This document shows, in pieces, positions 45,760-61,448 of a DNA stretch of 64,000 nt. This stretch comes from an uncultured Chloroflexia bacterium (GTDB lineage Bacteria > Chloroflexota > Anaerolineae > Anaerolineales > UBA4823), in assembly GCA_963792075.1 (NCBI GenBank), contig CAWBUW010000012.1, forward strand, positions 397,854 through 461,853. Reading direction: 5' to 3'. The position numbers were made by a program, and so were the translations under genes. Position 1 is the stretch's first letter. Each line of letters starts with the position of its first letter. The notes under the pieces are model-generated. The model worked only from the letters and a program-made list of their open reading frames with translations, made no database searches and had not been told where the DNA came from.

Positions 45760-45767
45760 GGTTTTCC

Positions 45768-46484
45768 TCAGGCCGCACCCAGGTAGCGGTGAATGGTGGC
45801 TTTATCATTGACAAGGTCCCGCATATTCCCGGATTGCACCGAACAGCCTTCTTCAATGATGGTGTAATACTCGGCGAGCTGGCTTGCCACCAGGAAGTTC
45901 TGCTCCACCAATACCACAGTTGACTCGACGGATAACTGGCGGATAGCTGCCATAAGCTGCTCAATGAGGACGGGCGCCAGCCCTTCGCTGGGTTCATCAA
46001 TCAGCAGCAGGTGGTTGTCCGCCACGAGCGCGCGAGCAATTGCCAGCATCTGCTGCTGGCCGCCTGAAAGATTGGCACCAGATAGTCTAATCAAGCGTTC
46101 CAGATCAGGGAATAGAGAATAAATAAATTCTTTTTTACGGTCGTAATCGCCCTTTTTTCGCTCCGCAATCTTGAGGTTCTCTTCTACGGTCAGATCGCGG
46201 AAAATGGCGCGATTTTCAGGAACAAAGCCGATACCCATCGTCGCAATGTCAAATGAACGCAGGCCCTGGATTGGGTGACCTTCAAACATGACCTTACCTG
46301 TACGCGGTGGCGTGAGGCCAAGGATTGACTTCAATGTGGTCGTTTTGCCTGCCCCATTGCGACCAAGCAGTGCGGTAACGCTTCCCTTAGGCACGTTCAG
46401 GCTTACCCCCTGTAGAATATGGTACTGCCCAATAAAAGTATGGACGTCCTGAAGCTCGAGGATATTTTCCACAACTGCGCTCAT
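45768..46484 (-). CDS. Liv-type ABC transporter ATP-binding protein (LivF-like)
   Basis: Walker [10 protein letters not shown], signature LSGGQQQ, Walker B LLIDEPS. Confidence 0.9.
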
Positions 46485-47257
46485 AAGTTTAACTCATACA
46501 AACCGCCCAGGTAAGCGGTTTGAACTTCCTTGTTGGCCGCAATTTCTGCGGGCGTCCCCTCCGCCAAAACGCCGCCCTGGTGCATCACCGTGATGACATC
46601 CGACACTCGCATGACAACATTCATATTATGTTCGACCAGCATCACGGTTTTATTGCCGGTCTTTTGGATTTCCTGGATCAAGGCGATCAACTCCGGCACC
46701 TGTTCTGAGGCCATGCCTGCCGTGGGTTCATCGAGCAGCAGTACCTCTGGATCGGGCGCCAGGATCATGCTCAGCTCCAGCTTGCGCTGGTCGCCATGCG
46801 GCAGCGTGCGCGCCAGGGTCAGGGCACGCCCTTCCAGGCCCACTTTCTGCAGCACTTCCCAGGCACGCTGCTCATAATGCTTGAAAGCGCCTGCCGGGCT
46901 GAAACACTTGAAATTATCGGGTCCCAAGGATTGGCAGGCCAGGCGGACATTTTCTAACACGGTAAGATTGGGAAAGATATTGGTAATTTGGAAGGAACGC
47001 CCCATACCCATGTGGATCGTGCGGTATACGGGCTGGTGGGTTATATCCTTGCCCTTGAAGAGTACCTTCCCACTTGTCGGCTCAAGGTTGCCACTAAGCA
47101 GGTTGAAGTACGTGGTTTTCCCCGCTCCATTGGGACCGATGATGGAGTGCAGCGAACCAGCCCTCACCCGGAGGCTGACATCCGCTACAGCGACCAGAGC
47201 ACCGAATTCCTTGCGCAGGCTTACGGTTTCCAGAATGGTCTCAGCATCCATGCTCAT
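46481..47257 (-). CDS. Liv-type ABC transporter ATP-binding protein (LivG-like)
   Basis: Walker A GPNGAGKTT, Walker B LLLDEPT. The ATG at 47257 is preferred because the longer ORF runs into a hairpin. 4-nt overlap with the LivF-like gene. Confidence 0.9.
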   Translation of the reverse strand: MSMDAETILETVSLRKEFGALVAVADVSLRVRAGSLHSIIGPNGAGKTTYFNLLSGNLEPTSGKVLFKGKDITHQPVYRTIHMGMGRSFQITNIFPNLTVLENVRLACQSLGPDNFKCFSPAGAFKHYEQRAWEVLQKVGLEGRALTLARTLPHGDQRKLELSMILAPDPEVLLLDEPTAGMASEQVPELIALIQEIQKTGNKTVMLVEHNMNVVMRVSDVITVMHQGGVLAEGTPAEIAANKEVQTAYLGGLYELNL

Positions 47258-47280
47258 CTTCCCAGGCAGAAAAGGTTTGC

Positions 47281-47319
47281 GTGGTGAACGCCCCAACCGC
47301 GATGGGAGGCGTTCACCAC
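47281..47319 (-). other. Intercistronic hairpin after the SBP gene of the second Liv-type transporter
   Basis: A 12-14-bp stem GTGGTGAACGCC / GGCGTTCACCAC, between the SBP stop (47336) and the ATPase start (47257). Confidence 0.55.
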
Positions 47320-47335
47320 ATAATTCTAGTTTATA

Positions 47336-48770
47336 TTATTTGCCAGACAGGTTCCCGTAAGGCAGGCTACCGCAGCGAGCCTTCAAAGCCTCGGGGAGCA
47401 GGCAGGGCGGTTCAGGTCGAGTAGTATTGACGTATTCGTAGAAGTTAGCGCCGGGGTCGGTAACGTTGAGCAGCTTCAGGATATACATATCCTGGATCGC
47501 CACGTGGTCTTCGGGGCGGATGTAGATCGTGCCTTTGGGGCCTTCGAAGGTCATACCTTCCATCACCTTAATCAGTGCATCACTGCTGGTATCGCCCTTG
47601 GTAAGCTTCAGGGCTTCTACCAGCATGATGGCGGCGTTCATGCCATCGGCATCGAACAGGTCGGGGTTAACGCCATAGCGCGGTTTGGTGTTGGCAACCA
47701 GGAAGTCGTTGATCGGGTTCTTGGGAGCACTGTAGTGGTAGAGGATACCACTGGTGCTGCCAATAGCGCCGCCATACCAGAGCGGCATGAGGACGTTATC
47801 GATGAAAGTTGCGCCCAGCGCCATTTTTTCGGTCACCCCCTGGTCCTTAGCGGCCTGCATCAGCGGGACGAAGCCACCACCTGCCCAGGTGACGATGTAG
47901 GACTTCGGCGCCGGAGTTCAGGATTTGTTCCATGTACGGAGTGAAATCCGCGGTGTCGAGCGGGGCAAAGATATCATCCGCAACAAAAGTACCACCATCC
48001 AGAGTACAGGCATCCCGGAAAGCAGCCGCTGAACCACGCCCAAAAGCGTAGTCGGGGGCAATCTGGACGAAGGTTTTGTACTGCTTGGTCAGATACGCAC
48101 ATTCGTTCATCGCGTCCTGGTAGTTGTTGCGGCTGGTGCGGAAGGTGTACTCGTTGAAGTTGGCGCCGGTGATGTCATTGGCGGCCGCGGGGGCTACGAT
48201 CAACGGGATTTTGCTTTCCAGAGCGATCCCCTGCAAGGTCGCAGTAGCGGCTGAGGAAGCCGTGCCGACCAGGAAGTTGACCTTCTGCACATCAATCAGC
48301 TCGCGGGCAACGGTAGCGGTGTTCGCAGGATCGCCAGCATCATCGCGCACGAATACCTGGATCTCGCAGTTTTCCACCTTGAAGGTGTTTTCCTGGGCAG
48401 TCTTGAGGTCGAAGACTTCGCCGGCCGAGCCGGGAGCGCCAGCAACATATTCCATGCCCAACATGAACGAGCGCAGGATATGTGCGCCGTAAATCGCCAG
48501 GGCGCCGGTGGCGTCCGTGATCAAACCGACTTTGACCGGCTCAGCGCAGGTCAAGCCGGCAGGCGGCGCTTCAGTAGGCGCTGCGGTCGGCTCTGCGGTC
48601 GGCGCTTCGGTGGGTACGGCGGTCGGTTCAGGCGCTTTGGTAGGCTCAACAACTGGGGCTGTCGTGGGCGCGGCAGTCGGTTCTGATACAGAGGTGGCTG
48701 CCGGCGCGCAAGCCGACAATACCAGCGCCAGGATGATCACGACATAAATTAGGGATCGGTACAGTTTCAT
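47336..48770 (-). pseudogene. Lipoprotein LivK-like solute-binding protein interrupted by a single frameshift (or an assembly indel)
   Basis: The N-terminal ORF (47847-48770) has a lipobox LVLSAC and a Pro/Thr/Ala/Glu linker. The C-terminal part (47336-47860) reads KSYIVTWAGGGFVPLMQAAKDQG in a frame open up to 47917. Together they make about 470 aa, the same size as the other SBP. Confidence 0.7.
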
Positions 48771-48886
48771 AATTTTCTACTCCTCCTTCAAAGAGTGAAC
48801 AATTTTAATTCTTTTCACATATCAAACGACGAATATACCTCAATAGTTACTTTCCAGGCAGCCACCTCCTCAATATTCTTTTCATA

Positions 48887-48908
48887 TGGTATACCTCTGG
48901 TATACCTC
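48887..48908 (-). promoter_or_regulatory. Two tandem 11-nt direct repeats (TGGTATACCTC x2), each containing the palindrome GGTATACC
   Basis: Exact repeat with 11-bp phasing in the 175-bp region upstream of the second Liv-type operon. AAGAAT/GAATAT -10-like hexamers follow about 8 nt downstream in minus sense. Confidence 0.5.
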
Positions 48909-48945
48909 GTGCGTGCAAAGCACGCACAAATTACACCACAGATCC

Positions 48946-49761
48946 TCATAACATAAAGTCGGACACCACCTGGGCGGCGGTCTCCGGTACTTCAACGGGA
49001 AAGAAATGGCCTGCGTTTGGCAGCAGCTTGACCTGGCTGTGTGGGATTTGCTTCGCCAGCAAATCCGCGTTGCCAGATGGAACCACCTTATCATGCTCAC
49101 CAAAAAGGATCAGCGTGGGCATGGCCAGGTTGGGCAATTTATGCTCAAAACAAGCCGCCTCCGCCAACAGCCCCAGGCCGATCGCCATCTGCGCCTGGTA
49201 AGGGACAGGCTCGACCGGGTTCTGCAGGCGGAACTGCACCCAGGCCTGGATAATCTCCGGATTGGCTTCGGCGAAGCCCGGAGCGCAGCTCACCGCGAGG
49301 CCGTTTGTGAAACGGGTCAGCGGGTCGCTGGTGACGTCGGAGAGCACCGCCATCGCTTCTGGCGTAATCGGAATGTGGTGTGGGCCGCCAAAATTTGTTG
49401 CAGAAAGGATCAGCTTTTCAACACTCTCTGTATGGCTGAGAGCCATTGCCTGGGCAATGAAGCCGCCCATCGAGTGGCCCATGATCACCGCTTTCTCTAC
49501 CCCCAACGCCTGCAGCAGGCCGGCCGTATCATCCGCCAGCATCTGCGCAGTATAAGGACCGGCCGGTTTGTCAGTCTGGCCCACGCCGCGGTTGTCAAAG
49601 ACAATGACCGGCACGCGCTGCGCCAACAGCGGGACCATCCGGTACCACATCCACAACGGGTAGCCCAACCCGGCAATCAGCACCAGCGGCTTAGCGGAAG
49701 TAAGCTGCGAGCCATGCACTTCATAATAAATGTCAATTCCATTCGCGTGTACTTTCGACAT
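48946..49761 (-). CDS. Alpha/beta-hydrolase
   Basis: 271 aa. Nucleophile elbow GHSMGG, HG oxyanion region, C-terminal His (NAGHFFP). Confidence 0.8.
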   Translation of the reverse strand: MSKVHANGIDIYYEVHGSQLTSAKPLVLIAGLGYPLWMWYRMVPLLAQRVPVIVFDNRGVGQTDKPAGPYTAQMLADDTAGLLQALGVEKAVIMGHSMGGFIAQAMALSHTESVEKLILSATNFGGPHHIPITPEAMAVLSDVTSDPLTRFTNGLAVSCAPGFAEANPEIIQAWVQFRLQNPVEPVPYQAQMAIGLGLLAEAACFEHKLPNLAMPTLILFGEHDKVVPSGNADLLAKQIPHSQVKLLPNAGHFFPVEVPETAAQVVSDFML

Positions 49762-49763
49762 GA

Positions 49764-51344
49764 TTACTCCCTGGTAGTTTTCTCCACCACCCCAGTATTC
49801 TCGACTGCGAACGCCTTGCGCAACTCTGCCTTGATCACCTTGCCATAGGGTGAATAGGGCAAGGCCGGCACGAACTCGATCCGCTTAGGGATTTTGAAGC
49901 GCGCCAGCCGGCTGGCGCAAAACGCCAGCAGCTCTCTTGCTTCAGTTTTCTGGTCCGGCTTGAGTGCGACTATCATCAAACCGACCTCCCCCCATTTAGG
50001 GTCCGGTTGGCCAATCAGCGCCGCATCTTCCACGGCAGGGTGCTCGCGAAAGACCGCCTCCACCTCGGCGGCATAAACGTTCTCGCCGCCGCTGATGATC
50101 ATATCCTTGTAGCGCCCGGAGATGTAATAAAAGCCATCTTCGTCCTGCCGCGCCATATCGCCGGTATAGAACCAGCCTTCCTTCAGCGCTTGAGCCGTTG
50201 CGGTGGGATTGCGCCAGTATCCGGAGCATACGTGCGGCCCGGCGATGATCAGTTCCCCAGTTTGCCCGACCGGCACATCTTTCCCTTGCGCATCCACCAG
50301 GCGCATCTGGCTGTGGAAGATGGGCTTGCCGACGGAGCCCGCTTTGGGCTCCGATTCCTCATCGGTCATGCTGAAACAGTTGGTGCCCACTTCGGTCAGG
50401 CCATAGCCCTGGCGGAACACCACGCCTTTGGCAGCGCGCCAAGCCTTCATCAGAGAAATCGGGCAGGGTGCGCCGCCGCTGACGAAAAAGCGCACATGGC
50501 TGAAATCCGCCTCGGCAAAATAGGGCGTATTCTGCCACATCTGGAACAGCGTAGGGACGCCCAAAACCACGCTGCACTTTTCTACGACGATCATACGCAG
50601 CGAGGTCTCGGGATCGAAGTTGCGCGCCAGGACGATCCGCCCGCCCGCGTAGAACAGGGGGACCAGGAAGATGAACAGGCCGCCAGCATGGAACATAGGG
50701 GTCAGGATGGGCGCGATATCACGCTCAGACAATCCCCAAGAAATGACCGTGTTGATGGCGTTCCACAGCACCTGGCGATTCGGGATGACTGCGCCCTTGG
50801 GCTTCCCGGTCGTGCCCGAGGTGTAGAGGATGCAGTACGGATCCTCGCCATCCAGCGATGGGCGTTCAGGCTCTACAGGCGAGGCCTGCGCCAGGAGCGC
50901 TTCATAGCTGGCTGCGCCGGGGATGAGAGCGCCTTCCAAAGCCAGATAAGCTTCTACCGAAGTACTGCTACCCCCATCCTGGACCGCCCGGATCTCCGCC
51001 AGCGCGCCCACAAACTCCGGGCCGCAAAGCAGGACTTTAGGCTGGGCATCGTTGATGATGTAGCTCAGCTCACGGCTGGTCAGCCGCCAATTGAGCGGGG
51101 TAAAGATGGCGCCGATTTTGCCTAACCCAAAAAGCAAATCCAGGTACGCCAATCCGTTGTGCGCCAGGATTGCCACTCGGTCGCCCTTCGTCACGCCAAA
51201 GCGCTTGCGCATCAAATTAGCGCAGCGGTTGGCGCGTGTGTTGAGTTCGGCGTAAGAATAGCGTCCGCCGTCGTGCACGTCAACCAACGCCAGGCGTGCA
51301 GGCGTCAGCAGGGCGCGTTTGCTGAGCAGGTCCGCCGCATGCAT
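49764..51344 (-). CDS. AMP-dependent acyl-CoA synthetase/ligase
   Basis: 526 aa. Canonical AMP-binding P-loop YTSGTTGKPKG and the GYGLTE and TGD motifs. Confidence 0.85.
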   Translation of the reverse strand: MHAADLLSKRALLTPARLALVDVHDGGRYSYAELNTRANRCANLMRKRFGVTKGDRVAILAHNGLAYLDLLFGLGKIGAIFTPLNWRLTSRELSYIINDAQPKVLLCGPEFVGALAEIRAVQDGGSSTSVEAYLALEGALIPGAASYEALLAQASPVEPERPSLDGEDPYCILYTSGTTGKPKGAVIPNRQVLWNAINTVISWGLSERDIAPILTPMFHAGGLFIFLVPLFYAGGRIVLARNFDPETSLRMIVVEKCSVVLGVPTLFQMWQNTPYFAEADFSHVRFFVSGGAPCPISLMKAWRAAKGVVFRQGYGLTEVGTNCFSMTDEESEPKAGSVGKPIFHSQMRLVDAQGKDVPVGQTGELIIAGPHVCSGYWRNPTATAQALKEGWFYTGDMARQDEDGFYYISGRYKDMIISGGENVYAAEVEAVFREHPAVEDAALIGQPDPKWGEVGLMIVALKPDQKTEARELLAFCASRLARFKIPKRIEFVPALPYSPYGKVIKAELRKAFAVENTGVVEKTTRE

Positions 51345-51349
51345 GCAGT

Positions 51350-52114
51350 CTAAGTCCCCACCACGATACCGCCGTCTACGCGCAGTGTTTCGCCAGTGAT
51401 GAAGGAAGCTTCGTCCGAGGCAAGGAACACGTATGCATTGGCAATGTCGCGCGGTTCGCCCATGCGGCCCAACGGCGTGTGGCCCTTCATGCCCTCCAGG
51501 ATTTTCTCCGGCATGGCCGCGACCATCTCAGTGGCCGTAAAACCTGGAGCTACGGCGCAGACACGGACACCATAACGCCCTAATTCACGCGCCCAGACCT
51601 TGGTCATGCCGATCACACCCGCCTTGGTGGCGACATAGTTGGTCTGGCCGAAATTGCCATCCAGGCCGACCACCGAAGTGGCGTTCAGCACCACCCCGCC
51701 ATGCTGGCGGATCATCACAGGGGCCACGGCCTGCGTGCAGTTAAATACCCCTTTCAGGTTGACTGCAATCACCAGGTCGAAATCTGCCTCAGCCATCTGG
51801 CCCACCAACTGGCCTTCTTTGAACTTGACCAGCAAGCCGTCGCGCAGGATACCGGCGTTGTTGACCAGCACATCAATCCGTCCGTACTGGGCCGCCACAT
51901 CATCGATCCAGGCCTGCACGGCCTGGCGGCTGGTGACGTCCACTTTATAGAAGCGCGCCTCGGCGCCCAACAGGCGCACCGTCTCCTGCCCAACCGCTTC
52001 GTTGACGTCGCAAATGACGACTTTAGCGCCTTCTTCAGCGAAGCGCAGGGCAGTGGCTTTACCGATCCCGGCTGCGCCGCCGGTAACCAGAACAACTTTA
52101 TCTTTGAATCGCAT
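51350..52114 (-). CDS. Classical SDR (FabG-like 3-oxoacyl reductase)
   Basis: 254 aa. TGGAAGIGKA, NNAG, YVATK (YxxxK). GGAGGA RBS. Confidence 0.85.
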   Translation of the reverse strand: MRFKDKVVLVTGGAAGIGKATALRFAEEGAKVVICDVNEAVGQETVRLLGAEARFYKVDVTSRQAVQAWIDDVAAQYGRIDVLVNNAGILRDGLLVKFKEGQLVGQMAEADFDLVIAVNLKGVFNCTQAVAPVMIRQHGGVVLNATSVVGLDGNFGQTNYVATKAGVIGMTKVWARELGRYGVRVCAVAPGFTATEMVAAMPEKILEGMKGHTPLGRMGEPRDIANAYVFLASDEASFITGETLRVDGGIVVGT

Positions 52115-52183
52115 AGGAAATCCTCCAGGTGAATATCAATCTATCACAGCACAGTTACCCGCTGGTTACACCTATCGTATCAT

Positions 52184-52260
52184 CTCAATAAAAGGGGGGA
52201 AGTGGAGCGTTTTGTGCGTGCGAAGTACACACAAAACGCTCCACACCCCAATTTATTGAG
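52184..52260. other. ~77-nt long imperfect palindrome
   Basis: A 15-bp inner stem pairs 52202-52216 with 52230-52244. Outer pairing CTCAATAAA/TTTATTGAG and GGGG/CCCC extends it. Located between the DUF35 and SDR genes. Confidence 0.6.
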
Positions 52261-52279
52261 AAGTTACCACCTATCTTTT

Positions 52280-52310
52280 TATAGGATGATGCTGGCAGCA
52301 TCATCCTATA
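52280..52310. other. 14-bp perfect hairpin immediately after the DUF35 stop codon
   Basis: TATAGGATGATGCT-GGC-AGCATCATCCTATA. There is no U-tract in minus sense. Confidence 0.6.
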
Positions 52311-52311
52311 A

Positions 52312-52737
52312 TTAAAATACACGAAATGCCAGGTAGGTATGGCTCTTCTCGCCGGCAGTATGTTCGATAAAATCGACCACCAGCGGTGCGCCGATCTGGA
52401 TCGCATCCGGATAGGCCGGGTCCAAGCCAAGAATATGCGCGCTGATACGCGGGCCTTCTTCCAGCTCCACGATCCCACTGACATACGGCTTCTCGCGCCC
52501 ATAGCCTTGCTCAATCATAAACGTTGGGGCGATATAGATCACCGTAAAGGCCGCCAGCTTGCCCTTGCCTGAGGTCTCGACCCATTCCATCCGGTCGCTG
52601 CGGCAGTGCGGGCAAATCGCCCGCGGGGGTAGTGCCAGCTTACCGCAGGCAGCACAACGTGCCGCCATAAGTTTCTTCTCCGCCAGGAATTGATCGAAAG
52701 CAGCCGCACTAAATGGTCGCGCCAGGGTTTCTGTCAT
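52312..52737 (-). CDS. DUF35 Zn-ribbon/OB-fold protein (thiolase partner)
   Basis: 141 aa. Zn ribbon CAACGKLALPPRAICPHCRS followed by an OB-fold region. AGGAGG RBS. Immediately downstream of the thiolase-like gene. Confidence 0.8.
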   Translation of the reverse strand: MTETLARPFSAAAFDQFLAEKKLMAARCAACGKLALPPRAICPHCRSDRMEWVETSGKGKLAAFTVIYIAPTFMIEQGYGREKPYVSGIVELEEGPRISAHILGLDPAYPDAIQIGAPLVVDFIEHTAGEKSHTYLAFRVF

Positions 52738-52746
52738 TTCCGCCTC

Positions 52747-54012
52747 CTAATTGCGCCGCTCATAAATATGTACTACACAGGTGGAACCGGTCGCGCCCAC
52801 GTTGTGTGTCAGCGCCAGCGGGATATCTCCTGCTACCTGGCGCGCCTGCGCCTCGCCGCGCATCTGCTTCCAGACTTCCACAGCCTGCGCTACGCCTGAA
52901 GCGCCCACCGGGTGGCCCTTAGACTTCAACCCGCCGGAGGTGTTGATTGGACGAGCGCCGTCGCGAGCGGTGACTCCATCTTCGGCGGCTTTATAGCCAT
53001 CTCCCGGTGCAAAGAAACCCAGGTCTTCGCCGGCGATAACTTCCGCAATCGTGAAGCAGTCATGCACTTCAGCGATACGGATATCGCTGGCGCTCACCCC
53101 TGCCATTGCATAAGCGACCTGCGCTGCCCGGCGCGCGGCGGGGATGCTGGTCAGCTCTTCCCGGTCGTGCAGCGGAACGCCAGAAGCCTGGCCCGAGCCG
53201 ATGATGTAGATCGGGTGGTCGCTGAACTCATGCGCTCGCTCGGCAGACACCAGCAGGACCGTTGCCGCGCCATCCGTGATCGGCGAGCAGTCGAACAAGC
53301 GCAGGGGCCAGGCAACCATGGGGTTGGCCGAGTTGTCGTGCAGGAAATCCCAGACTGTTTGCCAGGTTGGCGCCGGCTTGCCCTTTTTGATCGCGGCGGA
53401 AATGCGCCCCTGCATCCAATCGGGAAGCGAGACGCCAAACTGGGCCAGGGGATTGAGCGCCCCGTTGGCATGGTTCTTGATCGCCACGTGCATCAGATGT
53501 TCCGGCTTCATCCCATAACGGTGCATGTAAGCCGTCGCCATGGCTGCGTACAAACCGGGGAAGGTAAATCCCGCGGCGATTTCGAAGGGGATATCCGCCG
53601 CGGTTGCCAGCGTATCGGTCACTTCGGCAGTGGGCAGGTTGGTCATTTTCTCCACGCCACCCGCCAGCACCACGTCTTGCATCCCTGATGCAACCGCCAT
53701 CACTCCCTGGCGCAGCGCCACACCGCCGCTGGCGCAGGCGTCTTCCAGCCGGGTGGCGGGAATGGGCGCCAGGCCGACCGCATCGGCCATCAGCGGAGCA
53801 ATGTGCCCCTGGCGCTCGAACTGGTCACTGGAAAAATTGCCCAGGTACAGGCTTTCGATCTGTGTAGGATCCAGGCCTTTATCTACCGATTTGGAAAGAG
53901 CCTGGTATGCCTCGACAAAAAGGTCGCGGCTGTTCTTTTCGGGGAAAGCGCCGAAACGGGACATACCCGCACCGACCAGGGCGACCCCGCGTGGGAGACG
54001 AGTCGATTTCAT
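52747..54012 (-). CDS. Thiolase-like protein (SCP-x / non-specific lipid-transfer-type thiolase)
   Basis: 421 aa. Nucleophile region LEDACASGG and C-terminal GGLKSKGHPVGASG. Paired with DUF35, as in known thiolase-DUF35 systems. Confidence 0.85.
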   Translation of the reverse strand: MKSTRLPRGVALVGAGMSRFGAFPEKNSRDLFVEAYQALSKSVDKGLDPTQIESLYLGNFSSDQFERQGHIAPLMADAVGLAPIPATRLEDACASGGVALRQGVMAVASGMQDVVLAGGVEKMTNLPTAEVTDTLATAADIPFEIAAGFTFPGLYAAMATAYMHRYGMKPEHLMHVAIKNHANGALNPLAQFGVSLPDWMQGRISAAIKKGKPAPTWQTVWDFLHDNSANPMVAWPLRLFDCSPITDGAATVLLVSAERAHEFSDHPIYIIGSGQASGVPLHDREELTSIPAARRAAQVAYAMAGVSASDIRIAEVHDCFTIAEVIAGEDLGFFAPGDGYKAAEDGVTARDGARPINTSGGLKSKGHPVGASGVAQAVEVWKQMRGEAQARQVAGDIPLALTHNVGATGSTCVVHIYERRN

Positions 54013-54020
54013 AATCCTAT

Positions 54021-55085
54021 TTACCCTTTCAGGAAGGTTGTAAAGGCTTCCAAGAATTCAGCAGGCTTTTCCACATAAGGGGTGTGGCCGGTGTCGGTAA
54101 TCACCACCTCGTGGAACGACCCGCCCCGCGCTGCGTACTGCTCCAACACGTTACGCGTCTGGCCGACCATCGGCTGAGGTGGATAAACCTCATCCCCTGG
54201 CCAACCTGGGACGAAGCCAAGCTTGCCCAGGGTGCCCAGGTCAAAGAACGAGTTGTCCGAGACGATCTGATCCGAATCACCACGCACCCACAGCACCCGC
54301 GGCTTAGGCGTGGCAGCGATAAAACGCTTCACAGAATCGCCCACATACTTGGGCGTCGCGGCGTTGATCCCGCCCCATTTACCCGGTGCCACGTTCGGCC
54401 AGTTAGCAGAGGGCACAAAATCGCCGGGGTATTTCTCTGGGCCAATCTTCTCGGTCAGCAGCGAAGAGAGCAGGTCTTCTTCGCGAGCCGGTTTGAAAGG
54501 CGGTTTCCAGTAGAAGCTGTTCATTACGACGCGCGGGCTGGCGGTCGGGCTATCCATGCTGCGGTCGCCCTGAGCCATGCGCTGCGGGAATTCAGGGTTC
54601 ACCACCCCACCGCCAGAACCAGCAAAGTCAGGATAACAGGGCGTGCCGTTAATATCTTTGCTGCCACCAAAACCGTAGGGCGAGCCAGGGTTGACCAGCG
54701 TGGCGGAGAGAATACGAGCGCTGTTGGCCGCGATCAAATTAAAAACCAAGGCGCCGCCCAAGGAATGACCAACTGCGTGGAACTTCGCTGCGCCCAACGC
54801 ATCCGCCAGCGCGAAGGCATCGTCCACCCAGTCACCCAGGCCACGCGTGGCATCGATCAACAAGTCTTCAGTATCGCCATAACCACGCAGGTCAGGCGCT
54901 ACGGCGCGAAAACCTGCCGGGAGATGGAGCATGATCTCCTCCCAAAACGTCGCGGAGGAAGCGTTGCCGTGGAAAAAGAACACGGGCACACCGTTTTCTG
55001 GACCGCAGAACAGGGCATGCACTTTGAGGCGGGTCGTTTGTACAATCCTGGAGGTAATCCCAGGCAGAGTCGGGACAGTAGACAT
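54021..55085 (-). CDS. Alpha/beta-hydrolase
   Basis: 354 aa. FFFHGNASS oxyanion region, nucleophile elbow GHSLGG, C-terminal His (DTGHTPY). Confidence 0.75.
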   Translation of the reverse strand: MSTVPTLPGITSRIVQTTRLKVHALFCGPENGVPVFFFHGNASSATFWEEIMLHLPAGFRAVAPDLRGYGDTEDLLIDATRGLGDWVDDAFALADALGAAKFHAVGHSLGGALVFNLIAANSARILSATLVNPGSPYGFGGSKDINGTPCYPDFAGSGGGVVNPEFPQRMAQGDRSMDSPTASPRVVMNSFYWKPPFKPAREEDLLSSLLTEKIGPEKYPGDFVPSANWPNVAPGKWGGINAATPKYVGDSVKRFIAATPKPRVLWVRGDSDQIVSDNSFFDLGTLGKLGFVPGWPGDEVYPPQPMVGQTRNVLEQYAARGGSFHEVVITDTGHTPYVEKPAEFLEAFTTFLKG

Positions 55086-55161
55086 TGGTTTTCTCCTTTC
55101 GAATATGCGTGGTAAGCTGGTTTATGCAAATTGAGGTTGTTCGAACCAACCCGGAATTATT

Positions 55162-56706
55162 TTACCTGACAAACCGCTCGCGCAGCTCACGTTTGAGGAT
55201 CTTACCCGCCGCAGAAATGGGCAGGCTGTCCACGAAGATGACACTACGCGGAACCTTATATTTTGCCAGGCGAGCGCCCATAAATTCGAGCAGCTCGGCT
55301 TCGCTGGCGCTGGAACCTGGCTTGAGCACCACGCAAGCCTTGCCCACCTCCCCCCAACGGGGCTCAGGTACGCCAAACACAGCGCACATGTGAACGGCTG
55401 GGTGCTGGTAAAGTGCCTTTTCGATCTCCGCCGGATACACATTTTCACCACCGCTGATAAACATATCTTTCTTGCGATCAACGATGTAGAAATACCCTTC
55501 CGCATCATAGCGCGCCACGTCGCCGGTATGGAAGAAGCCCAATGAGTCCAAAACCGCGGCGCTGGTTTCCGGGTCAGCAAAATAGCCAGAGCAGTAAGAA
55601 GGACCCTTGAGCACCAACTCTCCATCCTGGTCCGGCCCCAGGAATTGCCCCTGGTCATCTACGATCCGGGCATCCACGTAAAAATTAGGGCGGCCAATCG
55701 AGCCTGCCTTGCGGATGGCATCTTCCGGCGCCAGGGCAAAAATACCCGGCCCAAACTCCGTCATTCCAAAGCCCTGTTTGAAACGGATGTGTTTTTCACG
55801 CGTATACTGCTCCACCAACGTCACCGGCAGCGGAGCGCCTCCCGAGGTGCAAAAACGCAATGAGGAGAGGTCTGCCTGCGACCAGTTCGACGCCTGGGTC
55901 AGCATCTGGTACATCGTGGGCACACCGGCGAAGACCGTGACGTGCTCGCGCTCAATCAGGTTGAGTACCTGCGCCGGATCAAACTGGCGGATCAAGATTG
56001 TAGCGCCGCCAAAGATCACCTGCGGCAGCGTGTAAACAAACAGGCCGCCCGTATGGAACATGGGGAAAACGTTCAAATAAATATCGTTGTGCGTGACGTC
56101 ATGGATCACCGTATTGAGCGTGTTCCAGGCGATCATACGATGGGAAACCTGGGCGGCTTTGGAGAGACCCGTGGTCCCACCCGTGAAAATCAACGCGGCG
56201 ATATCCTCGGCTTCCAATGATTCGCAAGTTACAGGGGTATCCGCCTGCGCTTGCAGCAGGGTCTCAAAGTGCTGGCTCCCGGCGATGCCTTCCCCTTCGA
56301 TATGGAAAAACCTGACAGGGAGAGCCGGACCCTCACGGAGCGCTTCGGCTAGCTGGCGCACGCTCTCTCGGAAATCATCCGAATACACCAGCACCTTCGG
56401 CGTCGTCTGGCGGAAAATCTCAACCAATTCTTGCCAGTGCAGGCGCCAATTCAACGCGGTGTGGATGGCGCCGAGCTTGGAGCAGGCAAAGAACGCGTCC
56501 AGGTGTTCTACCCCATCTCGCGCCAGGATCGCCACCCGGTCGCCCTTTGACACCCCCAGCAAGCGGAAGCCATTTGCCAGGCGGTTGGCGCGCCGGTTCA
56601 TCTCCTGGTAAGTCAGCCGCCATTCAGGGGATTTGCCTGCATCCACAATCGCCAGTGCCTGGGGTGAGTAAAGTTCTCTACGCGCCAGATAATCTCCGAT
56701 ATACAT
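55162..56706 (-). CDS. AMP-dependent synthetase/ligase with variant P-loop
   Basis: 514 aa. The AMP-binding P-loop variant FTGGTTGLSKA differs from the canonical TSGTTGxPKG. GFGMTE and TGD motifs are present. Confidence 0.85.
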   Translation of the reverse strand: MYIGDYLARRELYSPQALAIVDAGKSPEWRLTYQEMNRRANRLANGFRLLGVSKGDRVAILARDGVEHLDAFFACSKLGAIHTALNWRLHWQELVEIFRQTTPKVLVYSDDFRESVRQLAEALREGPALPVRFFHIEGEGIAGSQHFETLLQAQADTPVTCESLEAEDIAALIFTGGTTGLSKAAQVSHRMIAWNTLNTVIHDVTHNDIYLNVFPMFHTGGLFVYTLPQVIFGGATILIRQFDPAQVLNLIEREHVTVFAGVPTMYQMLTQASNWSQADLSSLRFCTSGGAPLPVTLVEQYTREKHIRFKQGFGMTEFGPGIFALAPEDAIRKAGSIGRPNFYVDARIVDDQGQFLGPDQDGELVLKGPSYCSGYFADPETSAAVLDSLGFFHTGDVARYDAEGYFYIVDRKKDMFISGGENVYPAEIEKALYQHPAVHMCAVFGVPEPRWGEVGKACVVLKPGSSASEAELLEFMGARLAKYKVPRSVIFVDSLPISAAGKILKRELRERFVR

Positions 56707-56742
56707 GGGAATGCTCCTTATGTGTTTCAGTAAAGCGCCTGT

Positions 56743-57747
56743 TTAAGCGGAAGCCGTCCATTTCCAGACTGAGGAGGCCATGCTGATCCCACCGCCGCTG
56801 GCGCAGAAGAGCACGATCTGGCCGGGTTTGGGGCCGCGACCCTGCGCAATGGCATCATCCAACGCCATTACCACACAGGGTGAGCCGGTGTACCCCCATT
56901 TATCCATCACCCAGTGCGTTTTGGTGATGGGCTGCCCTACCAGGTCCATCATCATTTCGATCGTACGCAGGTTGAGCTGAGTGAAGAGAAACAAGTCCAC
57001 GTCGCGGAAGGTCAGGCCGGCTTTATCCAGCGCACCTTGCATCAACCTGGGCCAATATTCCGTATTAAAGGTCTTGGGGAATTTCTTAACAAACTGCACC
57101 TTCGGCGGGCCAAATTCCTCCAGGTTAGCCGGCGTACAAGGACGGTAAGTACCGCCGGTATAGATGCCCAGCGCGTCATGGAACTCACCCACTGCCAGCA
57201 AGTTACTTGCCAGGAAGCCCGGCGTATCCCCCACGCCCAGAACGGCCGCGCCAGCGCCATCTGCGAACAGGTTGGCGGTCTTTTTATCGGTCAGGTCTAA
57301 ATAACGGCTCATCCCGTACCCACCCGCCACCAACACATATTTCATGGATGGCTCGGTCAGCAAATTGCGCGCGCCCTGGTCCAGGGCAGTCACCCAGCCG
57401 GCGCAGGCGCTGTTGATGTCAAAACAGCCAGCCCGGCCGGCCCCCAGCTTATGTTGTACCACGACCGAGGTACTGGGAGAGAGGTAGTCCGGCGTATCCG
57501 TCGAGACGATGATCAGGTCCAGATCCTGTGCGGTCAGCCCAGCGCGCTGCAAAGCGCGTTGCGATGCCAGGGTGATCAAGTCCGAGGTCGCTTGTTCGGG
57601 CGCCATCCAGCGCCGTTCCCGGATGCCCACATTCTCTTCCAGCCAGGCTGAGGTAGATTCTCCCAGCATTGCATCTATTTCGGCGTTGGTGACCACTCGT
57701 TCGGGTACATAACTTCCCGTCGCAAGCAACTGCACGTTACGGTTCAT
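56743..57747 (-). CDS. KAS III (FabH)-like thiolase-fold protein that retains Cys but lacks the His and Asn of the catalytic triad
   Basis: 334 aa from the ATG at 57747 (GGAGAAG RBS). Cys context NSACAGW. By-eye alignment to E. coli FabH: PHQANLRI becomes FTQLNLRT and HGNTSAAS becomes WGYTGSPC. Confidence 0.8.
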   Translation of the reverse strand: MNRNVQLLATGSYVPERVVTNAEIDAMLGESTSAWLEENVGIRERRWMAPEQATSDLITLASQRALQRAGLTAQDLDLIIVSTDTPDYLSPSTSVVVQHKLGAGRAGCFDINSACAGWVTALDQGARNLLTEPSMKYVLVAGGYGMSRYLDLTDKKTANLFADGAGAAVLGVGDTPGFLASNLLAVGEFHDALGIYTGGTYRPCTPANLEEFGPPKVQFVKKFPKTFNTEYWPRLMQGALDKAGLTFRDVDLFLFTQLNLRTIEMMMDLVGQPITKTHWVMDKWGYTGSPCVVMALDDAIAQGRGPKPGQIVLFCASGGGISMASSVWKWTASA

Positions 57748-57824
57748 AAGAGTTTCTTCTCCAAAAGGGTATGATAACGAAAAATCACGCTGCATTGAGC
57801 CAGCCGCGCCAACTGCCGGGCCGG

Positions 57825-58034
57825 TTACGTGGAGTGCGTGTCTAACGGCACAAAGCGTTGGATAAACGCCACGGCTTCCTGCCAGGAACTGAAGTTCAGC
57901 TCCTGTTCCGTTTGAATATGCCGGATGGAGCCGCGATAAGGCTGCGGAGGGCCGCCCTCAGGCTGCTCTCCAACGGGAGGCAGGACAAACCGGATGACGA
58001 AAGATGTGATCGTGGGTGAGGCAGGTATATCCAT
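57825..58034 (-). CDS. Small hypothetical protein (69 aa)
   Basis: Opens with the ATG at 58034; the ORF-track start at 58064 is a TTG. It sits between the regulator and the KAS III-like gene. The sequence SFVIRFV...YRGSIRHIQTEQELNFSSWQEAVAFIQRFV looks protein-like. No family recognised. Confidence 0.45.
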   Translation of the reverse strand: MDIPASPTITSFVIRFVLPPVGEQPEGGPPQPYRGSIRHIQTEQELNFSSWQEAVAFIQRFVPLDTHST

Positions 58035-58040
58035 ACGCAA

Positions 58041-58055
58041 TGTATCCTGGATACA
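58041..58055. promoter_or_regulatory. 15-nt palindrome TGTATCC-T-GGATACA upstream of the small ORF
   Basis: Perfect 7-bp arms, ending 6 nt upstream of the ATG at 58034. Confidence 0.4.
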
Positions 58056-58090
58056 GGATATCAAAGTCCGGTAACACCAGAGTTACACTA

Positions 58091-58137
58091 TGGGATGGTG
58101 GGTGTGGGCAGCTTCGCTGCCCACACCCACCATCCCA
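58091..58137. other. 22-bp perfect hairpin 6 nt downstream of the regulator stop codon
   Basis: TGGGATGGTGGGTGTGGGCAGC-TTC-GCTGCCCACACCCACCATCCCA. No U-tract. Confidence 0.7.
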
Positions 58138-58142
58138 TCCCA

Positions 58143-61100
58143 CTAATTGGCCAACTGGTCGTAAAGCGCCTGGGTCTCTGCGGATGGCGCCAGGTCCAGC
58201 TCCGCACGCAAGGTCTGCACGCAGCGTTGGTAGGTACGGCCCACCTGCCCGCGATCTCCCAGATGAGCATAGGCCTGCATCAGGTGGCGGTAAGCCCGTT
58301 CCCAGCAATTATCCTGCGCCAGGATGCGCTGGCCCAGCTCAACCACTTCGCTATATTGGCCGGCGTGCAGCAGCAGGTCCGAGAGCCGGTCGGCGGCCTC
58401 CAAAAACATGACGGCCATGCGCTCGCGTTCTTGGGCAGCCCACGTCTCGTAGAGCGTCTCTGGCAGGTATTCCCCTTGGTACAGCTTCAGCGCGGCGCGC
58501 AGCGTCTCCAGCCGGCGGTCATCGGGTCGTGGAGATTCCGGCCGTTCCGCCTGGCGCACCAGGCGCTCAAACTGCTCCACATCCAGCCAGATATCCGCCT
58601 CAGAGCGTAAACCATACCCTGTTCCTTCTCGCAAAATAAAAGCCGATTCAGCGCCGGGTTTCCGCTCCGGTTCCAGCACCTGGTAGAGCGTATTCAGCGT
58701 AATCTTGAAATTACGTTGGACTGTGCTGGCGTCAGCCCCCGGCCAGAGGTGCTCGCAAATCTGATCACGTTCCAGGGGAGTATGGCGAAAGGTAAGCAGC
58801 AGTTGAAAAAGGTGACGGGCTTTCTCCCTCCGCCAACCGGAGGCGGGGACGAGATCGTCGCCACGCCAGACCTGAAAGCTGCCCAGGGTGCTGACGCGAA
58901 GCTGGTAACCTGGATGCAGGGACACGTCTGTAAGCCCCATAACGCCCAGCAGGCGGGTAACATACCCTGCCTCCCAGCCATGCTGTCGCGCCAAGGCGAG
59001 CAGCGGGACAAAGATGCGCTCATCCGGCGCGCCCAGTAGGGAAGGACGGATCCATAAGAAATCATAACCACGTTCGCGGCAGGCCGCCAACACTTCCGGC
59101 AGCACCGGTTCCAAACGCTGGTGCCGTTTTTGGCGCTGCCAGCTCAAGCACAACCACAGCCGGGCTGCATTACGCCCAAACACATCGCTGCATTCCTGGA
59201 ACCCGGTAAACGCCCGGCTCAACCAGGTTTCAGCCGCCTCATATCTGCCGGCGAGTACCAGGCTGGCGCCTAAAGCCAGGCGCACCAGCGAAGCGATCCA
59301 TTCATCCCCGGCCTGCGCCGCAATCTCGATCGCGTCCAGAGCGTACTGCTGCGCCTGGGGCAGCTCTCCTAGATAGCCATAAGCGCGGCACAGACCCCAA
59401 TTCGCCTCCACCAGCAGGCGGGGGACGCTCAAGCTGCGGCTGATTTGCACGCATTTTTCAAACTGGAGACGGGCATTGGCGTAGTTTGCGAAGCGTTGGT
59501 CCGTAAAAGCCGCCTGCGCCATCAAGGCATGTCCCTGGCGCATATATCCCACCGCAGTGATGAACGGGGACTTAAGCTCCTCGCCGCGCTGGGTACCTTC
59601 CAACGCAGCCTGGTAAGCCAGCTCACCCTCGCCCTGAAAAGAGTAGATCAACGAGAGAAGCAGCAAGGTTTCCCGGTGGGCGCGTGGAGTCTGCACTGGC
59701 GCGCGGCGCTCAGCCGCAGCGCGTGCCTCCAAGGCCTGGCGCGCCTCGCCGATCCGTCCGGTGCGCAGCAGCACGCGAAAAAGCAGTTGCTCGTTCGAGG
59801 GGCCTTCACTGCGCAAATCATCCGCTTTTTGGCGCAAGCGCTCGGCCTCTTCCACCCGGCCGGCATTCAGCTTGTTCTCGGCCAGCAGTTCGTACAGGCG
59901 CACCTGCGCCTCGCGGTCTTCAAACCCATCGCTGAGAAAAACGGATTGTTGTAACAGCTCCTCCGCCTTGCTCGGATTGACCGTATCCAGGTAGACGCGC
60001 GCCTGGCCACGCAGGGCACGCGCTACGCCACCTGATTGGCCATGCGATCGCCAGACCGCTTCGGCCTGCTGGTACCAACCCAACGCTTCCTGAAAACGGG
60101 AGTACAGGCGGGCAAGGTCACCCATGTAAAACAACAGCAGGGGTTGTGCAGACAGCGTTTCAGGCGGCAGGGCATCCAACTGAGATGCCAGCGCTTCCAA
60201 ACGCCCAGAGGCTAAGAGTTGGCCGCCGAATTCAGCCAACTGTGCTGCGACATCCGACCAGGCCTCTGCCCACCTGTAGTGATAAATCGCATTTTCATGA
60301 TCCTGGCGGGTGAGGAAATAGACGGCCGCGCTGGCGTGCCAGGCCTGGCGCTGCTCTTTGGACGCCTGCTGCCGTAAAAACTCATGGAATATATGATGAT
60401 AACGCAGGATGCCCTCGCTGGTCTCCACCACGAACAAATCCTGCCGGCGCAAATACGCCAGCATCGCCGTGCTGTCGCGCACCTCGCTGCCGGTCCCCAC
60501 AGGCTTCCTCTCCGGATCGATACGTAGGGACTGCAAAGAGCAGCTACGCACGGCGTCGCACGCTTCCGGGATTAACTCACGCAGCGTGGCTGTGATCAGC
60601 AAGAACTCGCGAATATCCGCCGACTGCTGTGCAAAAACATCACGTGCCAGCACCTCGAACAAGGCATCCAGCGAGTCCATTTGCAAATATGCGGAGAAAT
60701 TGAGCGCTGTCGCCGAACGGCTGCGCAGGTTCTGCCAGGTTAGCTGAAGCGCAATCGCCCAACCCTCGGTATAGTCCAACAGCACGTCCACTTCATCCGA
60801 GGTAAGCTCATAACCGTACTGCTGTGCGAACAAAGCTGCGGTTTCTGGACCGGTAAATGTAAGGGCAGTCTGGTCAAGCAGGAGGACATCGCCCTGCAAG
60901 CGCCAGCGGGCCAGGTTCGGCAGTTGGATCGGCGGACGGCCGGCCAACAACACGTGCAGCGCTGCGGGCGCCAGCCCAATCAAGCGATCCATGATTTGAG
61001 CCACCTCACCCGATTCCAAAACCAGGTGGATATCGTCCATCACCAAAAGTGTGGGCGCGGTCAGGCCTTCACTCAAAGCATTTAAGTATCCATCCAGCAA

Positions 61101-61448
61101 GCTGCGCCAGGGCAGCGGCCCTTGTGAGCCATCCCAGGATTCGAGAAATGCAGTGGGCAGTCCATCCAGGCCGGGAAGCGATAATTGGGTGGCATGGCAC
61201 AGGTACAGCAGGAATACGAGTGGGTCGCTGTCTTCCTGAGTAACCTGATACCAGATCAAAGGCTGCATCTCCGTGGTCAGTTCGGCTAATGCGGTGCTCT
61301 TCCCATATCCTGCGCCAGCCTGCAGCAGTGTCAGGCGATAGTGCTGCGCGTCAGCCAGGCGCTGGCTGACGCGTGGGCGCGACAAAGTGCGCGGCGCGCG
61401 GCGCGGGGGAATGATTTTTGTACGCAGGATCTTCGGAAAGATGGGCAT
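58143..61448 (-). CDS. STAND-type ATPase (MalT-N-like) + TPR region + C-terminal SARP module (OmpR-type wHTH + BTAD) transcriptional regulator
   Basis: 1101 aa. MalT-like N-terminus (KIIPPRRAPRTLSRPRV...LLQAGAGYGKST, Walker A), a long helical-repeat middle, and a C-terminal LGSFQVWRGDDLVP...EKARHLFQLLL...LWPG plus a BTAD-like helical domain. Confidence 0.85.
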   Translation of the reverse strand: MPIFPKILRTKIIPPRRAPRTLSRPRVSQRLADAQHYRLTLLQAGAGYGKSTALAELTTEMQPLIWYQVTQEDSDPLVFLLYLCHATQLSLPGLDGLPTAFLESWDGSQGPLPWRSLLDGYLNALSEGLTAPTLLVMDDIHLVLESGEVAQIMDRLIGLAPAALHVLLAGRPPIQLPNLARWRLQGDVLLLDQTALTFTGPETAALFAQQYGYELTSDEVDVLLDYTEGWAIALQLTWQNLRSRSATALNFSAYLQMDSLDALFEVLARDVFAQQSADIREFLLITATLRELIPEACDAVRSCSLQSLRIDPERKPVGTGSEVRDSTAMLAYLRRQDLFVVETSEGILRYHHIFHEFLRQQASKEQRQAWHASAAVYFLTRQDHENAIYHYRWAEAWSDVAAQLAEFGGQLLASGRLEALASQLDALPPETLSAQPLLLFYMGDLARLYSRFQEALGWYQQAEAVWRSHGQSGGVARALRGQARVYLDTVNPSKAEELLQQSVFLSDGFEDREAQVRLYELLAENKLNAGRVEEAERLRQKADDLRSEGPSNEQLLFRVLLRTGRIGEARQALEARAAAERRAPVQTPRAHRETLLLLSLIYSFQGEGELAYQAALEGTQRGEELKSPFITAVGYMRQGHALMAQAAFTDQRFANYANARLQFEKCVQISRSLSVPRLLVEANWGLCRAYGYLGELPQAQQYALDAIEIAAQAGDEWIASLVRLALGASLVLAGRYEAAETWLSRAFTGFQECSDVFGRNAARLWLCLSWQRQKRHQRLEPVLPEVLAACRERGYDFLWIRPSLLGAPDERIFVPLLALARQHGWEAGYVTRLLGVMGLTDVSLHPGYQLRVSTLGSFQVWRGDDLVPASGWRREKARHLFQLLLTFRHTPLERDQICEHLWPGADASTVQRNFKITLNTLYQVLEPERKPGAESAFILREGTGYGLRSEADIWLDVEQFERLVRQAERPESPRPDDRRLETLRAALKLYQGEYLPETLYETWAAQERERMAVMFLEAADRLSDLLLHAGQYSEVVELGQRILAQDNCWERAYRHLMQAYAHLGDRGQVGRTYQRCVQTLRAELDLAPSAETQALYDQLAN

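Follow-up and report, generated by a model that had tools for sequence, protein, structure and literature searches.

The stretch of DNA analysed here, referred to below as the window, comprises 64,000 nt from an uncultured Chloroflexia bacterium (UBA4823; contig CAWBUW010000012.1, positions 397,854-461,853, forward strand). The subject of this report is a gene cluster at 43147-61448 of the window, in which a regulator, a set of genes for acyl-coenzyme A (acyl-CoA) metabolism and a Liv-type ABC importer lie together, every gene on the minus strand. The genes were defined from the listing of open reading frames (ORFs) and from Pfam and NCBIfam family scans, which bear out the gene list, the common orientation and the position downstream of a STAND/SARP regulator given in a preliminary description of this DNA. 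The unit was limited to these coordinates because what follows downstream (LacI, GH1, GH4) is a set of sugar-metabolism genes. Its features are listed in Table 1, and the short names given there are used throughout, with KAS for the ketoacyl synthase-like protein and SDR for the short-chain dehydrogenase/reductase.

Table 1. Features of the 43147-61448 unit, with the evidence for each
Feature	Coordinates	Strand	Basis
Regulator REG: STAND ATPase + TPR + C-terminal SARP	58143-61448	-	Pfam, NCBIfam
Small protein SM, 69 aa	57825-58034	-	No Pfam or NCBIfam match; tblastn conservation
FabH-like KAS, 334 aa	56743-57747	-	Pfam ACP_syn_III + ACP_syn_III_C
AMP-ligase LIG1	55162-56706	-	Pfam AMP-binding, 276.9 bits
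Alpha/beta-hydrolase HYD1, 354 aa	54021-55085	-	Pfam Abhydrolase_6 + Abhydrolase_1
SCP2/archaeal-type thiolase THL	52747-54012	-	NCBIfam PRK06064, 452.9 bits
DUF35 protein, Zn-ribbon + OB fold	52312-52737	-	Pfam zf-ChsH2 + OB_ChsH2_C
Intergenic inverted repeats	52197-52311	none	Between DUF35 and SDR genes
Classical FabG/PhaB-like SDR, 254 aa	51350-52114	-	Pfam adh_short_C2, 229.7 bits
AMP-ligase LIG2	49764-51344	-	Pfam AMP-binding, 301.1 bits
Alpha/beta-hydrolase HYD2, 271 aa	48946-49761	-	Pfam Abhydrolase_1, 122.4 bits
Liv-type substrate-binding lipoprotein, split by frameshift	47336-48770	-	Pfam Peripla_BP_6 on two ORFs
ABC importer, two ATPases + two permeases (BPD_transp_2)	43147-47296	-	Pfam

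The true start of the KAS protein lies 16 codons inside the longest ORF, as judged from a 100%-identical database protein of 334 aa. FabH structures can be aligned with the protein over its whole length, and the alignment with 1UB7, the T. thermophilus enzyme, confirms that the catalytic His and Asn are missing, as the preliminary description had noticed: Cys115 is kept (in DINSACAGW), the His is replaced by Thr256 (in FTQLN) and the Asn by Tyr286 (in WGYTGS). This C/T/Y triad is present in 83 of 83 matches of the Anaerolineae set and in 88 of 91 matches of the diverse set, counted over everything fetched. All NCBIfam FabH models score under their cutoffs on KAS, among them PRK09352 (229 bits, cutoff 249) and TIGR00747 (199 bits, cutoff 292). 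Among solved structures, FabH entries reach about 155 bits and the 3ROW/3S21/4KU5-series entries, which we take to be X. campestris OleA, about 45 bits. Models of 3-hydroxy-3-methylglutaryl-CoA (HMG-CoA) synthase match only the N-terminal part, with 33-45 bits, and the region where HMG-CoA synthases presumably carry their catalytic Glu reads TDTPD. The AlphaFold2 (AF2) model of KAS has a pLDDT of 75.7 and finds FabH as its best Foldseek matches (TM about 0.8). Two assignments were rejected on these grounds. A true FabH of fatty-acid initiation is contradicted by the lost triad, the scores under the curated cutoffs, the lack of acyl carrier protein (ACP) or fab genes among those called in the annotated loci, and the occurrence of the clade in an archaeon; an HMG-CoA synthase is contradicted by matches that are weak and partial.

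Database relatives of KAS number in the thousands. Identity is 79-100% for the top 120, almost all of which, where an organism name is given, are labelled Anaerolineales or Chloroflexi. Among 1.84 billion cluster representatives there is one tight KAS cluster at 80% identity, after which identity falls to below 50%. The next full-length representatives, at 39-49% identity, carry Thr and Tyr in 14 of 15 cases (the remaining one has Asn instead of Thr), and six that are more distant still have the canonical PHQAN and GNT motifs. Named members of the C/T/Y clade come from Thermofilum and Infirmifilum (archaea), Caldisericia, Bipolaricaulota and Saprospiraceae. No solved structure was found for the clade, none scoring above the typical FabH level, and literature searches turned up no paper about either the cluster or the clade. 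KAS thus shares with FabH/KAS III enzymes the fold and the place of the nucleophilic Cys, but its Thr/Tyr pair in place of His/Asn was seen in no solved match whose alignment was inspected, is nearly invariant across the bacterial and archaeal clade, and stands in a context of nutrient uptake, not of lipid or polyketide synthesis. By analogy with altered-triad relatives, malonyl decarboxylation appears unlikely for the C/T/Y proteins; CerJ, DpsC and PqsBC are such KAS III-like enzymes. A second FabH-like paralogue, absent from the window, was seen at L087:11013-12026, L158:5218-6270, L166:11022-12047 and L169:7555-8580 (handles with the prefix L denote the fetched loci); it matches NCBIfam PRK06840 with 419-487 bits (cutoff 315), has the Cys plus His residues at shifted positions, and often adjoins the C/T/Y KAS, which suggests a PqsBC-like heterodimer of the two in some lineages.

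Relatives of KAS were sought in GTDB with one genome per species. The scan found 288 species representatives that encode one, and 80 loci, mostly labelled Anaerolineae or Chloroflexota, were fetched. In these, tblastn with the window proteins recovered REG, SM, KAS, LIG1, (HYD1), THL, DUF35, SDR, LIG2, HYD2, the binding protein and the ABC genes, with homologue identities of 45-85% and in shuffled order. Since the same gene set recurs in 80 species-representative loci, the arrangement is far beyond chance, and the cluster is standard gene content of Anaerolineae; the possibility, allowed for in the preliminary description, that the set is not conserved can be set aside. KAS and LIG1 are adjacent in nearly all Anaerolineae loci, other lineages having other ligases or a CoA-transferase at that place, and the ATPase and permease genes are conserved downstream of the cluster. 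Several Anaerolineae clusters keep KAS without thiolase and DUF35. Malate synthase and isocitrate lyase, the genes of the glyoxylate shunt, lie inside L007 and L037, and matches to both lie beside the L099 cluster (by eye and BLAST). Small ORFs are present between KAS and LIG1 in nine Anaerolineae loci (L011, L012, L013, L021, L043, L048, L051, L052, L082); they cluster with a gene that matches the '23S rRNA-intervening sequence protein' family PF05635, L013:11011-11391 being the member scanned, and the gap has the look of a hotspot for mobile insertions.

Scanning metagenomes with KAS members from outside the Anaerolineae as seeds gave 80 further loci. Recurring neighbours in these are an alpha/beta-hydrolase just upstream of KAS, a ligase or CoA-transferase just downstream, an SDR and a MaoC hydratase; importers include SSF symporters (13 loci), MFS transporters (8), TonB-type barrels (14) and also porins. 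Of the diverse loci, 23 are well flanked, with 4 kb or more to either side of KAS. Of these 23, 22 have a CoA-activating enzyme, 21 a hydrolase, 21 a transporter, 13 an SDR and 5 a thiolase, the thiolase being in some cases of the classical type without DUF35. The locus of the archaeon Thermofilum adornatum holds a thiolase, an SDR, a ligase, two hydrolases, a Liv ABC system, KAS and a binding protein, and that of Caldisericia two hydrolases, KAS, an SDR, a binding protein, ABC genes, a TetR regulator, a CoA-transferase and a thiolase. The Bipolaricaulota locus L088 contains TetR, contiguous thiolase-DUF35-KAS genes, three SDRs, an enoyl-CoA hydratase, two hydrolases and ABC genes; neither a ligase nor a CoA-transferase was called in the Bipolaricaulota cluster itself. 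One metagenome-assembled genome (L087) has, besides the second KAS paralogue, a CoA-transferase and, inside this distant locus, a regulator of the same STAND/TPR/BTAD architecture as in the window. No gene was identified as an exporter in the annotated loci.

The thiolase exceeds the cutoff of PRK06064 (420 bits) and scores 433 bits with an archaeal acetyl-CoA acetyltransferase model. Its best structure is the acetoacetyl-CoA thiolase 6ESQ (286.9 bits), and the alignment shows both the ACASG and the HDCF motif to be conserved. The DUF35 protein, whose gene adjoins that of the thiolase in the window and always follows it in relatives, has two CxxC pairs and an OB domain, and matches 6OK1_B (65 bits) and 6ESQ_E (62.4 bits) best. 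On these matches the pair is a bona fide two-subunit ketothiolase of the archaeal type. Both proteins also match PhlC and PhlB, and the 6ESQ complex, PhlACB and SmaATase are their best structural relatives. With a third thiolase-fold protein encoded nearby, and with the three genes contiguous in Bipolaricaulota, a tripartite complex of KAS, thiolase and DUF35 could be envisaged, of the archaeal thiolase/HMG-CoA synthase or PhlACB type, with channelled condensation or C-acyl transfer as its core function; such complexes are known (PMC6392133, PMC12960953). This is very unlikely here, in view of the thiolase-free Anaerolineae clusters, of the small and partly DUF35-less share of thiolases in the 23 diverse loci, and of a third protein that is FabH-like, not HMG-CoA-synthase-like, and not consistently linked to the pair. 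An obligate complex is disfavoured by co-occurrence, KAS being without thiolase in 18 of the 23 diverse loci. No mevalonate or phloroglucinol genes were seen near the cluster.

The SDR scores 281 bits with FabG models, slightly below the cutoff of 296. Its beta-strand 2 ends in Asp (VVICDVNE), a residue kept in all 74 homologous SDR matches, which under the accepted coenzyme rule for SDRs of the classical type indicates NAD(H). The P-loop of LIG1 is a variant (TGGTTGLSKAA) and that of LIG2 is canonical (TSGTTGKPKGA). Both ligases best resemble CoA ligases of the FadD13/feruloyl-CoA type, with 8WEU/8WEV (8WEV annotated as feruloyl-CoA synthetase) and FadD13 closest to LIG1. In L049, L063, L070, L072, L074 and L077, LIG2 is replaced in place by an 816-aa fusion (L072:6704-9154) of a butyryl-CoA:acetate-type CoA-transferase, of the acetyl-CoA hydrolase/transferase family, with a Liv-type periplasmic-binding-protein domain; no N-terminal signal peptide was seen in the fusion by eye, and a cytoplasmic binding-protein domain on a CoA-transferase is unusual. 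Enzymes of the butyryl-CoA:acetate type also adjoin KAS in other phyla. Because a CoA-transferase takes the place of LIG2 and neighbours KAS elsewhere, the ligases are likely to form CoA esters, and the type of transferase points to a short-chain carboxylate as substrate. The two hydrolases have serine nucleophile elbows (GHSLGG in HYD1, which also has a large insert, and GHSMGG in HYD2). The best NCBIfam match of HYD1 is intracellular short-chain polyhydroxyalkanoate (PHA) depolymerase, with just 60 bits over the N-terminal part; its AF2 model is confident in the core and poor in the lid, and its best Foldseek match is the polyhydroxybutyrate (PHB) depolymerase 8YNV of B. thuringiensis, with margins over many other hydrolases that are non-discriminating. 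HYD2 is esterase/lactonase-like (best structures 6EB3 and 8V16), and a hydrolase of its type directly precedes KAS in many lineages.

The binding protein has an N-terminus ending ...LVLSAC followed by a Pro/Thr-rich linker, and is read here as a lipoprotein-type signal. A frameshift near 47904/47905 splits its gene into two overlapping ORFs, and in L002 (18934-20301), as in relatives, it is a single gene of 455 aa. The frameshift is either a sequencing or assembly error or the mark of a pseudogene, in which case the strain would have lost this uptake.

The preliminary description saw in this cluster an echo of the Ole pathway of olefin and beta-lactone formation. At family level the combination of a thiolase-fold enzyme, an AMP-ligase, an SDR and an alpha/beta-hydrolase does recall OleABCD, and a SARP/BTAD regulator would suit a secondary-metabolite pathway, but four matching superfamilies are all that is shared. 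OleA keeps Cys-His-Asn plus a Glu base; OleB is of the haloalkane-dehalogenase type with an Asp nucleophile; OleC is a beta-lactone synthetase; and OleD is an extended NADPH reductase of about 330 aa of the 3-beta-HSD type. The KAS protein lacks His and Asn and scores far from the presumed OleA structures, the hydrolases use Ser, and the SDR is a short classical one of 254 aa. Also, the ligase is interchangeable with a CoA-transferase, importers are linked to the cluster in place of any gene identified as an exporter, and homologous clusters occur in Thermofilum. An Ole/beta-lactone pathway was therefore rejected on catalytic residues, SDR class, hydrolase nucleophile and importer context, and an Ole-type or other secondary-metabolite pathway under the SARP regulator is exceedingly improbable. 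The alternative that the preliminary description kept in reserve, a catabolic route of ABC uptake, CoA activation and thiolytic cleavage, is supported. Importer linkage, the CoA-transferase in place of LIG2, the glyoxylate-shunt genes and the NAD-type SDR argue for utilisation over biosynthesis, and it is highly probable that the cluster is a transporter-linked utilisation locus, serving the catabolism or storage of an imported carboxylate. This grade is an overall judgement, and the likelihoods given below to three utilisation readings (one based on 3-hydroxybutyrate, one on PHA storage, one on other carboxylates) add up to its lower end.

Markers of PHA metabolism are present in several homologous clusters. 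A signal-peptide esterase in L100 passes the model of extracellular short-chain PHA depolymerase NF050058 (273.8 bits, cutoff 150), with homologues in L097, L101, L104 and, more distant, in L126. The Anaerolineales locus L078, with a KAS 77% identical to that of the window, encodes a class I PHA synthase (660 bits against a cutoff of 622.65) and a class III-like synthase between KAS and LIG1. L150 and L158 encode PhaC-like proteins of class III that bear a GYCMGG box, and the class III-like scores are just under the cutoff of 365.3 (361 in L150, 360 in L078). MaoC/PhaJ-like hydratases lie within homologous clusters, and in L146 the thiolase matches acetoacetyl-CoA thiolase models and the SDR FabG/acetoacetyl-CoA-reductase models. 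A protein of 158 aa between a hydrolase and the class I synthase (L078:8486-8962) matches Phasin_2 below the threshold (E=0.0034); it is possibly a phasin of divergent sequence. Because homologous clusters carry PHA depolymerase and synthase genes, the cluster is placed in or next to a well-known metabolism. Thus the earlier statement that it fits no described pathway holds in so far as no paper on the cluster or the KAS clade was found and fails in so far as its homologues carry these genes, a finding that by the preliminary description's own standard counts in part against it.

The metabolism concerned could be mainly synthetic. As a PHA-cycle or storage operon, the cluster would activate imported short-chain acids through the ligases, condense them through thiolase/DUF35 and reduce the product through the SDR to (R)-3-hydroxybutyryl-CoA for polymerisation by a PhaC encoded elsewhere, the hydrolases mobilising the polymer later as depolymerases. 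Thiolase and FabG-like SDR would then form a PhaA/PhaB pair, haloarchaea produce PHA precursors with ketothiolases made up of a thiolase and an OB-fold subunit (PMC7137286), and the archaeal ketothiolase (KT)/DUF35 complexes studied in Sulfolobus favour condensation (bioRxiv 10.1101/2024.07.05.601840). The synthases of L078, L150 and L158 and the possible phasin of L078 (a weak match) would also fit. Against this, L078 aside, neither the window nor any of the other 79 Anaerolineae loci has a PhaC; a role in scavenging and assimilation is suggested by the secreted depolymerase, by uptake of the TonB type and by the genes of the glyoxylate shunt; and CoA-transferases in place of a ligase and the NAD-type signature of the SDR fit synthesis poorly. 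A mainly synthetic role is thus unlikely. The haloarchaeal PhaA/BktB enzymes and the KT/DUF35/reductase/MaoC system of S. acidocaldarius do resemble the cluster in having thiolase and a co-transcribed OB-fold DUF35 partner beside a FabG-like (R)-type SDR, with MaoC in some relatives, and in a CoA-dependent, ACP-independent chemistry (PMC7137286; bioRxiv 10.1101/2024.07.05.601840). However, both are anabolic and NADPH-dependent, in contrast to the NAD-type SDR and import context seen here, and the catalytic subunits of the haloarchaeal ketothiolases are reported to be Ser-His-His, whereas the window thiolase keeps its Cys motif.

The imported carboxylate could also be unrelated to PHA, for instance a hydroxycinnamate undergoing side-chain shortening, or another hydroxy- or oxo-acid or ester, degraded to acetyl-CoA in a CoA-dependent manner. 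The closest solved ligase is annotated as feruloyl-CoA synthetase, the nearest solved relatives of the binding protein include binders of aromatic acids, MaoC, SDR and thiolase are together able to shorten a propenoyl side chain, and the Pfam family of PHB esterases also includes feruloyl esterases. The L100 esterase, however, passes the specific short-chain PHA depolymerase model and not only that broad family, the PHA synthases in three clusters would be left unexplained, the CoA-transferases are of the short-chain butyryl-CoA:acetate type, and ring-processing genes are present in none of the annotated loci. A non-PHA carboxylate is accordingly held to be rather improbable.

The reading preferred here, put forward tentatively and at a little less than even confidence, is that the 43147-61448 unit serves the utilisation of 3-hydroxybutyrate (3HB) or its oligomers via (R)-3-hydroxybutyryl-CoA and acetoacetyl-CoA. 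Known PHB mobilisation employs PhaZ/PhaY hydrolases, a 3HB dehydrogenase or PhaB, an acetoacetyl-CoA synthetase or CoA-transferase, and the PhaA thiolase. The same roles recur in the cluster, as in ketone-body catabolism and in the logic of E. coli atoDAEB: ester hydrolases, CoA activation, an SDR acting at C3, an acetoacetyl-CoA-type thiolase and an importer. It differs from these pathways in that the window proteins reach no equivalog cutoff for PHA enzymes, import runs through a Liv-type ABC system, the thiolase belongs to the two-subunit kind of archaea, and the C/T/Y protein, its most constant member, is not known from them. From its sequence features the cluster would therefore work like a PHB-mobilisation or ketone-body catabolic operon with an added uncharacterised thiolase-fold enzyme.

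Several points weigh against 3HB utilisation. The Sulfolobus complexes cited above favour condensation over cleavage, and NADH-using reductases can serve PHA synthesis too, which leaves the direction unproven. The resemblance of HYD1 and HYD2 to PHA depolymerases is weak and non-discriminating, none of the window's genes is PHA-specific, and only 4 of the 23 well-flanked homologous loci, a minority, carry PHA markers. The aromatic-acid binders among the relatives of the binding protein count here as well. Moreover, the pathway as drawn has no strict need for KAS, whose role it leaves unexplained rather than demonstrated.

The gene families, residues, synteny and co-occurrence with importers and PHA genes described above would be consistent with the following scheme, in which substrate, direction of flux, individual reactions and KAS chemistry are the proposed part. 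The lipoprotein binding protein and the ABC permease would import 3HB or short 3HB oligomers or esters, the cytoplasmic serine hydrolases HYD1 and HYD2 would open ester bonds, and LIG1 and LIG2 would form the CoA thioesters. The NAD-type SDR would oxidise (R)-3-hydroxybutyryl-CoA to acetoacetyl-CoA, and the thiolase/DUF35 pair, probably together with the FabH-like protein, would carry out thiolysis to acetyl-CoA. The operon would be inducible and its substrate family would be the breakdown products of PHB/PHA; in relatives with PhaC, the same (R)-3-hydroxybutyryl-CoA pool could also feed PHA. As regards KAS, its constant hydrolase and CoA-activating neighbours, the frequent absence of thiolase and the absence of ACP genes suggest an ACP-independent acyl-Cys enzyme acting on short acyl-CoAs. 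Through an acyl-Cys115 intermediate, it might carry out CoA-dependent thiolysis of the ester in a CoA-activated 3HB dimer, for which the thiolytic cleavage of PHB by PhaZa1 is a precedent (PMC7147478), or it might act as a non-canonical acetoacetyl-CoA thiolase. That the C/T/Y proteins form a new class of the thiolase superfamily, ACP-independent and acyl-Cys-based, with a Thr/Tyr pair and CoA-dependent cleavage of one of these kinds (ester thiolysis of 3HB-oligomer-CoA or a FabH-fold acetoacetyl-CoA thiolase), is a speculative and rather unlikely proposition.

The regulator REG contains BTAD (Pfam, 86.6 bits), TPR_12 and AAA_22 domains. NCBIfam gives the MalT model 183.8 bits, under its cutoff, and places AfsR-type SARP models on residues 849-1097. 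REG thus combines a BTAD and winged-helix DNA-binding module with a STAND ATPase and TPR repeats, as is characteristic of SARP/LAL-type regulators. Its domain order (ATPase-TPR-SARP) is reversed relative to that of AfsR. The regulator gene lies upstream of the cluster in most Anaerolineae loci. SM, which has relatives in 64 tblastn matching rows among the collected sequences and was called as a gene in L001, L002 and L003, shows the motif SFVIRFV...YRGxIRHIQ-x6-NFxxWxxAVxFIxRFVPL; the linker after SFVIRFV is variable and the reading frame is kept. Sited between REG and KAS, it may be a partner of the STAND/SARP regulator. The hairpins reported in the preliminary description were found as two inverted repeats, one at 52197-52249 with arms of 23 nt and one at 52279-52311, a perfect 16-nt palindrome (TTATAGGATGATGCTG C CAGCATCATCCTATAA). 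Many relatives have a third alpha/beta-hydrolase gene between DUF35 and SDR, at the site of these repeats, and the repeats may thus represent an operator, a terminator or the scar of a deletion; promoter and terminator scans gave nothing above shuffled expectation. Elsewhere in the window, a sugar-utilisation block (35866-43128) contains LacI, GH1, two GH4, a BadF-type ATPase and a 2-hydroxyacid dehydrogenase, and upstream of it there are, on the minus strand, a DUF885 protein (28736-30577) and, on the plus strand, a trimethylamine-methyltransferase-like protein of the MttB family (31931-33466). The G+C content at 8001-16000 drops to 0.46-0.50, compared with 0.55-0.63 elsewhere in the window, and this stretch may be a horizontally acquired island.

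Members of the Anaerolineae are abundant, mostly uncultured scavengers of sludge, sediments and aquifers, and their diet is poorly known. For these organisms the cluster offers a concrete substrate hypothesis, namely PHB-derived 3HB and its oligomers. Its new element is the FabH-like C/T/Y protein, which defines a compact, well-defined and uncharacterised clade in bacteria and archaea. If ester thiolysis of CoA-activated 3HB oligomers by KAS is true, two 3HB-CoA would be obtained per ATP; either this or a FabH-fold acetoacetyl-CoA thiolase would offer an energy-saving way of scavenging storage polyesters to energy-limited anaerobes from the Anaerolineae to the archaeon Thermofilum. The KAS reaction, once worked out, would add new chemistry to the thiolase superfamily and could show how the breakdown products of polyesters are activated cheaply under anaerobic conditions.

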